Shown here: positions 46,404 through 50,701 of the stretch, piece after piece | Position numbering within the stretch: position 1 is the first letter of the stretch | How the letters are laid out: each line of letters begins with the position of its first letter | IMG/VR virus record: IMGVR_UViG_2721755651_000007 | Source of the DNA: a virus | Lineage: Duplodnaviria; Heunggongvirae; Uroviricota; Caudoviricetes | Direction: 5' to 3' (one strand) | Length of the DNA: 64,000 nucleotides | Notes under the pieces: generated by a model | What the model saw: only the letters and a program-made list of their open reading frames with translations | The model's database searches: none | What the model was told of the DNA's origin: nothing | Translations under genes and position numbers: made by a program

Positions 46404-48257
46404 TTATGATGATGCCGGTGCATTTATCTCCAGCACCAGACTTTCTATCTCAACGCCATACGCTGCATTTTTTGTAACATCCGTCAGCGTCAGCGCATTC
46501 AGTCCCAGTGTCAGACTGTCTTTTATAACCTGGAATGCCGGGCCAGCCACTCCATTCAGTTTCGGAGTAACCGTGGCACTGCCGGCGGTGAACACCAGCT
46601 CCAGCGTCTGCCAGTCGTTACCGTAATCGCCGAACTCCCCCAGCTTCGTGTTTCCGGCTTTCCTGTGATGCATCAGATTCACTCTGCCGTCAGTGGTCTG
46701 AGTGAAGTACGACATCAGGAACGGATTACCGGTACCCGTCATCGCCACACCATCAGGAACGGGAGCATCCGTATACAGATAAATCCCCAGCCCGAACTGA
46801 TTGTTGGTCAGTGCGCCTGACAGGCGGAACTTACAGGTCAGTCTGCCGCCCTGTGTCAGCAGGGTAATTGCGTCATCCACCGGATGCGTCAGGGACCAGG
46901 TTTTATTGCTCTGCCTGGTGATCTTAAATACACCATCTGACAACTGAATTCCGCCATCCTTAATGCTCCAGCCCTGCGCAGCAGCCTCTCCGGCTGCCGG
47001 CAGCAGGGAGATTGTGCGAACGGACGTATCTGCAGACGGACCCGATGGCGTGTTGCCGCCGGGCGAGGGTTTGATTTCCGGTGCCTTACCACTGATGAAG
47101 GCTGAGGTGCGCCCGGCTGCGTTCAGAATAGCGGTTGCCATACGATCCGGAATAATGCTCCTGCGCGCCCATGAACTGAAATGTGTCGGGCGGTTTGATG
47201 ATACCTGGTTTCCATTCGTTCTCGATGCCGCACCGTAATATCCTGATGCCGGAATATCCGGATCTTCTGCCGGCGCGTTAGTGGCGGTATTGACGCCGTT
47301 ACCGTCTGTCATGAAGGGCACAAAATAAACGCCCTCACTCTCCCTGTTTTTGTACGCCCCGTAAATGGTGTTGTACTGGGTGCCGTAGGTATTTTTCCAG
47401 TAATACGTCGTGTCACCACAAATCCACGGCACATCTGCAGCACTGCCACCATGGCACTGCGCGTTAAACACGGAGAGGTCAGCACGAAACTGTGCCAGCA
47501 TGGCTGTAAACAGCGCAGGTTGCTGTGCGTGGGTGGCGGCGCTCATGTCAAACTCTCCCTGCATCCAGCACACCGCCAGCAACACATTTTTCGGGTTCTT
47601 CTGTAATGCAGCTTTAGTGCGCGCAATCAGGTCCTGATATAACGGTTTACCCACACCCCAGCGCGCCGAATCCTGGCTGGCCCCCGCGTCCGCACTGAAT
47701 GTCCCCTCCGCGCCCTGGGTGAATGCCGAACCACCACGACAGCATGGTACCAGCAGGATCCCCGCGTTATTCGGGATATACGGAAGCAGTTTTTTGGCAA
47801 TATGTAAGCCCTGGCCGACACAGCCGTACTGCCCTTTGCTCAGGTCTGCCTTCGGATGATTCAGCGTACTCATATCCTGCACATCATGCAGGCAGTGGTC
47901 GGCCGGAATAATATCGTTATATCTGCAGGCAGCCCCACCCGGCGTAACTGTACTGCGGCGCGCCAGCTGTTTAATGCGCGGATCCGGAGCATCGTATGAA
48001 TCCGGCAGCGGAAGCCCTTCACCGTAAGCCATGGCATTGGACTGCCCGGCCAGTACGATGACGTAGTACCAATCCGGCTCAGTTGCACCACTGACCACCA
48101 CATCACCTTCTGCTGTAATCACCTGCATCAGGGTATAAGGGGTTATGGCCACCGGACTACCAAACGGCTGCCAGCCCTCTTTCAGTTTGTGTGTCAGCTT
48201 TTCCGCAAGGTCTGACGGCGACGCCGCCCTGACAACATCATAATGTTTAAATGTCAT
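46404..48257 (-). CDS. NanS-p-like sialate O-acetylesterase with C-terminal carbohydrate-binding region
   Basis: MTFKHYDVV.. N-terminal domain, SGNH/SASA-like core; location is the nanS-p slot of Stx-type phages. Confidence 0.7.
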
Positions 48258-48780
48258 TATTCCTCCCCTTTCCGGGATTTTCCTCAACAGTTGCGGGCCA
48301 CGGTCCGGCCACAAGGAGAATCAAAAGAGGAGAACCGCAGCCCGCAAAACGAAAAAGGCCGCGCAGTTGCGCAGCCTTATAAACCCTGGTTAAAATCCAC
48401 ACGATAAAAATGACAATGCAAGTATCTCATGCTGTTGCCCGAACCCACTCGGGCTTTTTTTTGCATGTAAAAAGGCTCCTGCGATGAGAAGCCTGGATAT
48501 ATGCCTAATCTCTGTATACAGCATGATGCCGGGTGCCTCCCGGTGAATTCTGCAATGACCAGACAGAATCCGCAACTTGCCTATACAATACGCAACCAAA
48601 CATCTGTCATTATGCCCCGCCGCTCAGGGGGATTCATCATGCAGGATTTTTTTAACAAACGCTCAGCATGTCAGGCAACAGTCAACTGCCTGAATTGTGA
48701 GGCATTTAACATTTCACTGTCCGGTGTCTTTCCTGTAATAAAAAGCCCGCAAAAGAGAGTCAGGGCAGATAAGTGTGGTG

Positions 48781-48857
48781 TGGTGCGTTGTACTGGATTC
48801 GAACCAGTGACCGATTGCTTAGAAGGCAATTGCTCTGTCCGGCTGAGCTAACAACGC
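48781..48857 (-). tRNA. argO: tRNA-Arg (anticodon UCU)
   Basis: 77-nt cloverleaf, anticodon loop CUUCUAA, CCA end. Confidence 0.9.
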
Positions 48858-48937
48858 AGAATACCGATAATGGACCGCCACCGGGGACTCCGAATCTCGC
48901 ACAGGGTGACGTTCTTTCCTGATGAGCTAGTGGCGGT
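48858..48937 (-). other. degenerate tRNA-like remnant (argN-position)
   Basis: 7-bp acceptor-like helix and CCA but only about 67 nt and no canonical anticodon or T arm. Confidence 0.3.
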
Positions 48938-49013
48938 TGGTGGCCCTTGCTGGATTTGAACCAGCGACCTGGCGATTATGAGTCGCTCGCTCTCACCGCT
49001 GAGCTAAAGGGCC
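48938..49013 (-). tRNA. ileZ: tRNA-Ile2 (anticodon CAU, ileX-like)
   Basis: 76-nt cloverleaf, anticodon loop CUCAUAA, CCA end. Confidence 0.85.
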
Positions 49014-49053
49014 GATTGCTGAATAATAACGACGCATGATTAACTCCGCAATC

Positions 49054-50112
49054 TCATCCGTTACGAATGATTAAATCCTGTACTTCCCGCACCGTCTGCT
49101 CAAAACGTTCAGTCTCCAGTTCAACGCCAGTTGCACGACGTCCCAGCGCCATCGCTGCTTTCACTGTCGACCCCGACCCCATGAAGAAATCTGCAACCAG
49201 GTCTCCCGGACGACTGCTTGCGCTGATTATCTGCTGCAACATTTCTGCCGGTTTTTCGCACGGATGTTTCCCTGGATAGTACTGCACCGGTTTATACGTC
49301 CACACATCGGTGTACGGCACCTGCACCGTCACACCGAAATACCGCCGCAGATGCTTATATTCACTCTGCAGCTCCGCATACTGTCGGTTCAGAGAGGCAT
49401 ACGTATCCACCAGCTGGTGGTGGGGCTTTTCCAGTTCACCCCGCTGATGCTTCTCTTCTGCCACCCGGGCAAACAGTGCCTGTAATTTCAGATAATCGCT
49501 TTCGTTCGGCAGCTGCCACTGACCGGCACTGAACCAGTGCGACACCATGTTTTTCTTTCCTGTGGCATCTGCAATCTGTTTTGCCGTTATCCCCAGGACA
49601 GCGCGCGCATCACGAAAGTAAGCAATCAGCGGGGCCATCACATGCTGTTTCAGTGTCCTACCCTTCGCCTCATACCCGGCATCTTTCGGACGATACGGCC
49701 CCTGATAATGCTCTGCGAACAGAATGCGCTCTGTGGCGGGGAAATACGCCCGCAGGCTTTCCTTGTTGCACCCGTTCCAGCGTCCGGACGGCTTTGCCCA
49801 GATGATATGGTTCAGCACGTTAAACCGCTCACGCATCATGATTTCGGTGTCAGATGCCAGACGATGGCCACAGAACAGGTAAAGACTTCCGGCAGGTTTC
49901 AGCACCCGCCAGAACTGCGCAAGACACTGGTCCAGCCACTTCAGGTAATCTTCATCACCCGCCCACTGGTTATCCCAGCCCTCGGGTTTCACTTTGAAGT
50001 ACGGCGGGTCCGTGACTATCAGGTCAACAGAATTTTCGGGTAACGACCGCATAAATTCCAGGCAGTCGGCGTTGATTAACTCACAACTGGATATTTTTAC
50101 AGTATTAAGCAT
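49054..50112 (-). CDS. DNA methyltransferase (N6-adenine/N4-cytosine class, DPPY motif)
   Basis: motif IV ..LIVTDPPYF.. near N-terminus and AdoMet motif ..DFFMGSGST.. near C-terminus; no adjacent restriction gene. Confidence 0.85.
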   Translation of the reverse strand: MLNTVKISSCELINADCLEFMRSLPENSVDLIVTDPPYFKVKPEGWDNQWAGDEDYLKWLDQCLAQFWRVLKPAGSLYLFCGHRLASDTEIMMRERFNVLNHIIWAKPSGRWNGCNKESLRAYFPATERILFAEHYQGPYRPKDAGYEAKGRTLKQHVMAPLIAYFRDARAVLGITAKQIADATGKKNMVSHWFSAGQWQLPNESDYLKLQALFARVAEEKHQRGELEKPHHQLVDTYASLNRQYAELQSEYKHLRRYFGVTVQVPYTDVWTYKPVQYYPGKHPCEKPAEMLQQIISASSRPGDLVADFFMGSGSTVKAAMALGRRATGVELETERFEQTVREVQDLIIRNG

Positions 50113-50262
50113 GGATCATTAAGCCTGTCTCTGATAGGCTCATTCTGCTTTTGCGCAAAGCAGTGGGCCTGAGGTTTGCTTGTGAACCCAACGCATGAGC
50201 AGATGGCTGGTGGGTGCCCCTTACACCCACCAGCCGCCCATTTACCACAAATAAAAAAGCCT

Positions 50263-50460
50263 TCAGGACTGAAGGCGTCTGTAACAACCAAACTGATAGT
50301 CTGCCAGACCCGCCATAACCAGCTGGGTCAGTATTAACTGGCAGCGTTCGCGTGAAAGGTAAGTATTCTGCGCAATCTCCCCGACTGTCGCCGGGTCGGT
50401 AACGCTTAATTCATTAAACACCACTCTGGCGGTTTCTGTCATATCCTGCTGTTTCAGCAT
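50263..50460 (-). CDS. hypothetical first late-operon protein (paralog of 1839..2036)
   Basis: near-identical to prophage A copy. Confidence 0.4.
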   Translation of the reverse strand: MLKQQDMTETARVVFNELSVTDPATVGEIAQNTYLSRERCQLILTQLVMAGLADYQFGCYRRLQS

Positions 50461-50582
50461 GTCTTTTTCCCTTTTCCGGTTAACGTGACACACCAATAAC
50501 TCTTGTCGAAAAAGCCAGCAACCTGAAAGAACGGTATTAATAACCACCAGCGAATTTATTGCGCTGCTGTATATTACGGACA

Positions 50583-50608
50583 CAAAAAAACCACCTTCCG
50601 GTGGCTTC
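50583..50608 (-). terminator. tR'-like intrinsic terminator downstream of Q (prophage B)
   Basis: minus-strand hairpin CCACCGGAAGGTGG plus T7. Confidence 0.5.
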
Positions 50609-50701
50609 CTTGTGCGAAAAAACTTGCATTTCGCCTCGCGATACAGCTTTGCGAAGCTTACAGGAATTCAAGCTGTTTCTGCGTAAAAAAGCAAGCTTTT
50701 T

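Follow-up and report, generated by a model that had tools for sequence, protein, structure and literature searches.

The DNA analyzed here is a 64,000-nucleotide (nt) stretch of viral sequence (IMG/VR record IMGVR_UViG_2721755651_000007; hereafter the window, to which all coordinates refer), whose late gene region, lying at approximately 45106-51300 and on the minus strand throughout, carries a slot used for toxin genes in Shiga toxin (Stx)-converting phages. Positions 46000-51300 are 100% identical at the nucleotide level to prophage Sp9 of E. coli O157:H7 Sakai (NC_002695.2, 1771792-1777092) and likewise to EDL933; 336 records match this segment at 99% identity or more. The Sakai Sp9 annotation agrees gene for gene with the late region of the window. 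In the order of late transcription one encounters DUF968, RusA, Q, a small open reading frame (ORF), a methyltransferase gene, a transfer RNA (tRNA) gene with a CAT anticodon, a decayed argN, a tRNA-Arg(UCU) gene, a gap of 523 base-pairs (bp), and the genes for NanS-p, a holin, a DUF1327 protein, a lysozyme, an antirepressor-like protein and Rz. The region, with Q immediately upstream of its late genes, belongs to the lambdoid late-operon family and is Sp9 itself. It almost certainly represents a lambdoid prophage built on the late scaffold of Stx-converting phages and free of toxin genes.

An initial annotation, made from the letters of the sequence, had described positions 46404-50700 as a Stx-phage-type late region comprising Q, the terminator tR′, tRNAs, NanS-p, a pinholin and a signal-anchor-release (SAR) endolysin. 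All of these elements (tR′ as a candidate terminator) were found on the minus strand, on the strength of Pfam matches, tRNA calls and an alignment to the endolysin 3hde. The range given does fall in a genuine late region but leaves out the Q, holin and endolysin genes that it was meant to contain, and the list of elements, correct for the items named, omits the methyltransferase gene and the small ORF.

The slot between argO and nanS-p

The features in and around the slot, in the order of late transcription, are the following.

49013-48938, minus: tRNA gene with CAT anticodon, ileZ-type (called as Met by ARAGORN, annotated as tRNA-Ile in Sakai)
48937-48858, minus: decayed argN, a tRNA-Arg(UCG) pseudogene, recognized by aligning it with tRNA clusters from two Stx2 phages
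48857-48781, minus: tRNA-Arg(UCU) gene, argO-type
48739-48701, minus: empty cargo junction, defined by breakpoint maps and junction alignments
48671-48463, minus (late strand): small RNA (sRNA) of the STnc100 family, EcOnc28 (Rfam RF02076, E = 3e-41)
48402-48461, plus: EcOnc03, an sRNA of 51-56 nt, running antisense to the late transcript and converging with it
48378-48355, minus: terminator-like hairpin just upstream of nanS-p, from a terminator scan, overlapping the inferred EcOnc03 promoter region
48257-46404, minus: NanS-p, a prophage sialate O-acetylesterase of 617 amino acids counted from the ATG at 48257 (Pfam DUF1737 1.8e-14, SASA 1.7e-12, DUF6645 4.8e-18; ECs_1781 in Sakai)

The gap at 48258-48780 is exactly the interval from the NanS-p start codon (48257) to the tRNA-Arg gene (48781). 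As the initial annotation had stated, it contains neither a toxin gene nor an ORF of toxin size; the longest late-strand ORF encodes 69 amino acids and overlaps an sRNA gene. Remnants of stx were sought in the whole window and in the gap alone, using Stx2A and Stx2B from VT2-Sakai and Stx1A and Stx1B from an Stx1a phage as queries in tblastn (word size down to 2) and blastn (word size 7) searches. The four proteins gave chance-level matches only, with a best expectation value (E) of 0.27 in the window and 0.2 in the gap alone. The best nucleotide match in window or gap was an 11-mer (E = 0.058), and local alignment of the junction with the 5′ and 3′ ends of stx found nothing beyond the flank homology. 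The toxin-free reading thus withstood the search for stx fragments in the gap. In Stx-converting phages stxA and stxB lie between Q and the tRNAs on one side and nanS-p and the lysis genes on the other; because this defining pair is absent, the Sp9 region is not that of an Stx-converting phage.

Comparison with Stx phage genomes yielded clean breakpoints. Homology to the Stx2a phage Stx2_EH2246 extends from 50558 to 48740, ending 56 nt before the stx2A start codon, and resumes at 48700, 46 nt past the stx2B stop codon, so that the 39 nt at 48739-48701 stand here against a 1,341-bp stx2AB cassette in that phage. The breakpoints are the same in VT2-Sakai. In an Stx1 phage, homology resumes at 48714, 40 nt past stx1B. 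These maps bear out the earlier proposal that the gap corresponds to the stx slot, its flanks matching the DNA that borders stx in Stx1 and Stx2 phages. About 23 nt of the junction (TACAGGAAAGACACCGGACAGTG) have no counterpart in Stx phages and are nearly identical in the stx-negative phage vB_EcoP_phi296. The 40 nt following stx1B in Stx1 phages bear a loose resemblance to this filler.

The toxin-less junction was found in 485 of 5,426 complete E. coli genomes (about 9%), including strains of serotypes O157:H7, O111:H8 and O145:H28, and occurs contiguously in eight phage records. One of the carriers, vB_EcoP_phi296, is a free stx-negative phage of the Sepvirinae in which the tRNAs are followed by a gap of about 530 nt and then by NanS; its junction filler, at about 3560-3600 of the phi296 sequence compared, is near-identical to that of the window even though identity in the flanks drops to 74-81%. 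That 485 genomes share the junction, as do stx-negative free phages of diverged sequence, favors a conserved cargo-free slot, that is, an allele which would be old and inherited rather than the product of a recent toxin deletion.

Descent from an Stx phage that has recently lost stxAB would account for the homology of both slot flanks to the sequences immediately next to stx in phages of the Stx1 and Stx2 types, and it could draw on the existence of an Stx2a phage that shares the Q-methylase-tRNA backbone and on the decay of argN, which shows that the tRNA cluster has undergone erosion. We nevertheless consider such a history improbable. Not a trace of stx sequence is left, the 23-39-nt junction has hardly changed in a free phage whose flanking DNA has diverged, and its distribution over several serotypes is better explained by an old inherited allele than by repeated recent deletions. 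An ancient exchange, brought about by homologous recombination within the conserved flanking DNA, would be indistinguishable from never having had stx.

Phages of this group have their “moron” cargo slot between argO and nanS-p, and the Sp9 copy is one without protein cargo. In Stx1 and Stx2 phages the slot is occupied by stxAB, in other prophages by TerB-type or regulator genes. Tree et al. (2014; PMC4104026) described in Sakai a site downstream of the Q-antiterminated promoter PR′ that tolerates “moron” insertions, with convergently oriented sRNA genes lying after the cargo and before the conserved ORF downstream. There is nothing anomalous about the arrangement seen in the window, which is the moron insertion site layout published for O157 lambdoid prophages and occurs in roughly 9% of complete E. 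coli genomes. Earlier publications already cover prophage Sp9, the absence of stx from it, the concept of the cargo slot and the sRNA pair with its position. Two details appear to be unannotated, namely the argN remnant between the two tRNA genes and the conserved junction filler. The findings carry little weight as a discovery; their use lies in annotation. In particular, a late region resembling that of Stx phages should not be scored as toxigenic unless the stxAB cassette itself is present.

The argN remnant has lost its anticodon arm through a 12-nt deletion and carries further substitutions relative to argN of Stx2 phages. Neither ARAGORN nor Rfam calls a tRNA at 48858-48937, and the Sakai annotation lists only ileZ and argO.

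Convergent small RNA genes in the gap

The initial annotation had recognized only hairpins in the gap. The hairpins exist but they belong to two sRNA genes recognized by Rfam, and the gap holds a convergent pair of genes for Hfq-binding sRNAs, EcOnc28 and EcOnc03. RefSeq annotates nothing here; seemingly empty intergenic DNA beside phage cargo slots can thus hold abundant regulatory RNAs that protein-centered annotation misses.

The late-strand member of the pair belongs to the STnc100 family: the covariance model RF02076 matches along its full length (model positions 1-206 of 206) with 175.2 bits against a gathering threshold of 47. The RNA has a terminator of its own at 48494-48466. Its minimum-free-energy fold is no more stable than those of shuffled sequences (z -0.83); since fold stability gives no support, the evidence for this RNA consists of the covariance-model match and the published Hfq crosslinking. 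The position of EcOnc28, calculated by offset from the published table, is approximately 48567-48522 (minus), within the STnc100 match, and the RNA is a paralogue of EcOnc27 of the Stx2 phage. According to Table S2 of Tree et al. (PMC4104026), EcOnc28 lies on the strand opposite EcOnc03 at a distance of 61-106 nt. An STnc100-family match occupies the same position in all five comparator phages (Stx2 phages, an Stx1 phage, a TerB-carrying prophage and phi296), whatever their cargo. An AsxR, AgvB or EcOnc03-like partner accompanies it in three of the five: AsxR in VT2-Sakai, a true AgvB (96.5 bits) in PPyecE_EH1910 and an EcOnc03-like RNA (56.6 bits) in the Stx1 phage. The sRNA module does not depend on the cargo.

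A ribosome profiling (RIBO-seq) study of EDL933 reported transcription of STnc100 copies, one of them a 209-nt copy at about 1.87 Mb; having the same length, this is probably the copy in the gap. The study also reported ribosome coverage on several STnc100 copies, including the 209-nt one (value 1.73). Together with the existence of the 69-amino-acid ORF on the late strand (48599-48390), such coverage could be taken to mean that the gap encodes a small protein, instead of or besides RNAs. This is very unlikely, as the ORF starts with TTG, has no evident Shine-Dalgarno sequence and lies inside the full-length match to a structured RNA; neither RefSeq nor the Sakai annotation places a gene there, and what is conserved among phages merely 75-83% identical in DNA is the match to the RNA family.

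The published sequence of EcOnc03 finds an exact 51-nt match at 48408-48458 (plus). In the identical Sakai prophage, EcOnc03 ranked third in abundance among the new Hfq-bound RNAs (PMC4104026, Table S2). Northern analysis detected species of 56, 54 and 51 nt; the 5′ end was mapped by rapid amplification of cDNA ends, the RNA was crosslinked to Hfq, and it became less stable when hfq was missing (PMC4104026). Convergent sRNAs are found at the moron site of Sp5 (stx2; EcOnc27 and AsxR), and the same is true of Sp3, Sp4, Sp9, Sp10, Sp11, Sp15 and Sp17 (PMC4104026). The RNA of the window has the features of this anti-sRNA family: a length of 51-60 nt, a conserved 3′ portion of about 42 nt, an intrinsic terminator (a hairpin followed by U8), and an orientation convergent with an STnc100-type sRNA on the 3′ side of a PR′ cargo slot. 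EcOnc03 shares with AgvB and AsxR its position, orientation, length class, 3′ 42 nt with terminator, and Hfq dependence; it differs from both in the 5′ seed, which is neither the CACAACA of AgvB nor the seed of AsxR.

The Rfam scan labeled positions 48402-48461 (plus) as AgvB (RF02702), with 56.6 bits against a gathering threshold of 56; the AsxR score, 46.8, is below its threshold of 63. Taken at face value, the label would make this RNA a sponge for GcvB. There is very little chance that it is AgvB itself. The score barely reaches the threshold and is due to the shared 3′ 42 nt, whereas true AgvB scores 96.5 bits. The 5′ variable region, CGAUAAAAAUGACAAUGCAAG, is devoid of CACAACA, the mimic of GcvB R1 targets that defines AgvB proper (the 5′ region under the AgvB label reads AAAUGACAAUGCAAG), and EcOnc03 has a 5′ seed of its own, AAUGACAAUGCAAG. 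AgvB1 and AgvB2 were located in Sp10 and Sp17, while the Sp9 RNA received the name EcOnc03 (PMC4104026). Finally, the predicted duplex with GcvB (-11.5 kcal/mol, z +0.38) is no better than those of shuffled seeds; true AgvB reaches -19.8 kcal/mol and ranks first. As the EcOnc03 seed lacks CACAACA, the Rfam label is not to be taken literally, and a threshold-level “AgvB” hit is no proof of a GcvB sponge.

By analogy with its relatives, EcOnc03 would most likely act as a sponge for a host RNA. Candidate partners were screened with RNAduplex by pairing the 5′ variable regions with 21 Hfq-dependent sRNAs of K-12 MG1655 and with DicF from the window, dinucleotide-shuffled sequences serving as controls. 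In both positive controls the known partner came out on top: GcvB for AgvB, at -19.8 kcal/mol, and, weakly, FnrS for AsxR, at -9.4. The best duplexes of EcOnc03 were those with SgrS (-13.2, z -0.85) and MicA (-10.4, z -0.52), neither being an outlier.

The toxin-less junction might represent an ancestral, conserved “landing pad”, with stx1, stx2 and TerB or regulator cassettes swapped in through recombination within the flanking tRNA and sRNA sequences. Separately, EcOnc03, being abundant and Hfq-bound and having a unique 5′ seed that fits none of the 22 core sRNAs screened, might sponge or regulate a host RNA. We advance this pair of ideas tentatively, judging them somewhat less likely than not. 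Neither would constitute a new kind of system if true.

The Q region and late transcription

Upstream of the tRNA cluster, the late strand carries the following features.

52659-51613, minus: DUF968 protein
51600-51241, minus: RusA
51244-50702, minus: late-gene antiterminator Q, DUF1133-type (Pfam DUF1133 1.1e-110, Phage_antitermQ 1.4e-08)
50616-50580, minus: candidate tR′, a GC-rich hairpin with a U7 tail, located roughly 90-120 nt beyond the Q stop codon as read from the sequence
50460-50263, minus: small ORF of 65 amino acids, homologue of ECs_1779 in the Sakai annotation, between candidate tR′ and the methyltransferase gene
50276-50259, minus: second terminator-like hairpin, from the terminator scan, after the ECs_1779-homologue ORF
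50112-49054, minus: N6/N4 DNA methyltransferase of 352 amino acids (Pfam N6_N4_Mtase 2.4e-43; ECs_1780, “DNA methylase”)

The Q gene corresponds to ECs_1778 (“phage antiterminator”) of Sakai Sp9, whose annotated start is at 51232. A Pfam search assigned the product of the small ORF (50263-50460) to no family; an ORF of this type is present too in Stx2_EH2246 and PPyecE_EH1910. The methyltransferase gene is a protein cargo gene placed between Q and the tRNAs. Folding of the segment 50700-50575 gave -48.2 kcal/mol (z -4.49), a stability matched by none of 200 shuffled sequences.

On the lambdoid paradigm and from the anatomy of the region, PR′ would lie between 50700 and 50620, within the 80 nt or so that follow the Q stop codon. 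In the lysogen, transcripts from PR′ would stop at the hairpin at 50616-50580. EcOnc03, transcribed from a promoter of its own that is predicted from the sequence, and the STnc100-type RNA would both be made in this state and bound by Hfq, as demonstrated with the identical Sakai DNA. Upon induction, RNA polymerase would be modified by Q at PR′, immediately past the Q gene, and in its modified form would pass tR′ and then the terminator-like hairpins at 50276-50259, 48494-48466 and 48378-48355. We infer that this read-through would allow expression of the small ORF, of the methyltransferase and tRNA genes and of nanS-p, followed by the genes for lysis (S21-type pinholin, a DUF1327 protein, the SAR endolysin and Rz/Rz1).

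Several observations weigh against the interpretation of the region as a toxin-free version of the Stx-phage late scaffold with working late and sRNA transcription units. A sigma-70 scan of the interval between Q and tR′ disclosed no convincing PR′, and promoter-like sites were not enriched (2 found against 2.1 expected in shuffles); because of this lack of enrichment, the promoter positions given for the sRNAs and for PR′ are readings of the sequence. The type of Q differs from that of Stx phages, and the StxS/tR′ model developed for the latter (PMC7547250) is for this reason not simply transferable. The decay of argN indicates that some erosion of the prophage has occurred. The expression data come from Sakai and EDL933, whereas the strain of the window has a rearranged prophage end. 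Lastly, the EcOnc03 seed found no convincing partner among the 22 core sRNAs that the screen covered.

The leader between PR′ and tR′ that yields StxS in Stx phages (PMC7547250) was considered as a model for the Q-proximal segment and set aside, having no blastn-level homologue in the window. Since the Q region differs in type and the leader lacks such a homologue, the assignment of tR′ is a purely structural one.

Lysis genes, relatives and the remainder of the window

The genes that follow nanS-p are listed below.

46254-46039, minus: S21-type class II holin of 71 amino acids, a pinholin by homology (Pfam PF04971, “Bacteriophage P21 holin S”, 3.5e-32; ECs_1782)
46034-45690, minus: DUF1327 protein between holin and endolysin (Pfam DUF1327 5.5e-46)
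45639-45106, minus: R21-type SAR endolysin, a lysozyme (Pfam Phage_lysozyme 1.5e-24)

The NanS-p reading frame stays open upstream of the ATG up to position 48314. Located downstream of the stx slot, the predicted protein displays the attributes of its family, namely DUF1737, a SASA domain with “AGQSNA” (the GQSN motif) and a C-terminal domain; the gene is 94% identical in nucleotide sequence to yjhS/nanS-p of an Stx1 phage. The architecture of nanS-p and its presence in non-Stx prophages are documented (PMC10462455). The holin covers 63 of the 64 positions of the PF04971 model and begins with an MYQM dual start, which places it in the S21 family as a putative pinholin. Residues 9-174 of the lysozyme align with residues 5-163 of the full-length phage 21 SAR endolysin 3hde (E = 5.5e-18). 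The alignment includes an N-terminal Gly/Ala/Ser-rich segment, GLSAAVLALIGAGASAP, as the putative signal-anchor-release element, and the E-X8-D-X5-T motif is present; the protein can thus be classed as a probable SAR endolysin. The cassette of holin, endolysin, Rz and Rz1 genes lies downstream on the same strand, Rz and the embedded lipoprotein being annotated in the identical Sakai DNA. Just past Rz, calculation by coordinate offset predicts another Hfq-bound sRNA of Sp9, EcOnc12 (Tree et al., Table S2), at approximately 43386-43433 (plus).

Sp9 as found in Sakai, EDL933 and several hundred complete genomes has in common with the window the gene order from DUF968 to Rz, the ileZ/argO annotation, and both EcOnc03 and EcOnc28. 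The Stx2a phage Stx2_EH2246 (LC567837), as well as Stx2_EH1910 and the Stx2d phage Stx2_112808, shares the Q-proximal ORF, the DNA methylase and the tRNAs (91.6% identity) and, beyond them, nanS-p and the genes for holin and endolysin; as in the window, an STnc100-family RNA comes after the cargo. These phages differ in having the 1,341-bp stx2AB cassette, an intact argN, and iraM in the place of EcOnc03. The iraM gene (encoding an RpoS stabilizer; positions 3727-4050, minus, of the Stx2_EH2246 record) is antisense, between the STnc100-type RNA and nanS-p, and is another cargo variant.

The Stx1a phages (LC567823, H-19B, YYZ-2008) are 94-97% identical to the window from 40 nt past stx1B through nanS-p, but carry stx1AB, a different upstream Q region, and no methylase/tRNA block of the type seen here. 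Their anti-sRNA, which is EcOnc03-like, obtains the same Rfam score as that of the window (56.6 bits with the AgvB model), and on the basis of this equality the EcOnc03-type seed may travel with Stx1 phages too. In LC567823 the anti-sRNA lies at 4755-4814 (minus).

The stx-negative Sepvirinae (vB_EcoP_phi296, TL-2011a, PPwrbA_EH2201 and Lahn2) exhibit the same order of tRNA-Arg, junction, STnc100 and nanS-p with a near-identical filler, while being 74-81% identical overall, with an intact argN and only a fragment of the methylase gene; no anti-sRNA match reaches the Rfam threshold in them. PPyecE_EH1910 has the same late scaffold (88-94% identity), its slot holding plasmid-stabilization, regulator and TerB genes.

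The first 24 kb of the window consist of Sakai Sp11/Sp12 DNA (prophage A) and positions 22400-64000 of an Sp9-type prophage. Taken in full, the window is collinear with O157:H7 strain 319 (NZ_CP018241.1) but not with Sakai, in which this tail end of Sp9 is followed by an effector island and the trp operon. The junction of Sp9-type with Sp11/Sp12-type DNA, found at the distal prophage end where Sakai Sp9 has the effector island, probably results from a prophage-mediated chromosomal rearrangement, which left the late region untouched.

Prophage A, whose Q region is 86% identical to that of Sp9, displays the same Q, DUF968, RusA and tRNA scaffold. As the initial annotation had noted, it contains an AraC regulator and a TerB-like gene: an AraC-type helix-turn-helix protein (990-1703, minus) and a TerB-domain protein (108-611, minus) flank a tRNA pair (709-961, minus). 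The AraC-type gene replaces the methylase gene and TerB sits in the stx slot, these being alternative cargo in the same slots. Other Rfam matches in the window (5255-5429, minus; 53640-53789, minus; 13952-14003, plus; 7906-8022, minus) correspond to two sok antitoxin RNAs, DicF and an ALIL pseudoknot. The sok RNAs point to hok/sok-type loci in both prophages, and ALIL is the frameshift pseudoknot of an IS3-family element.

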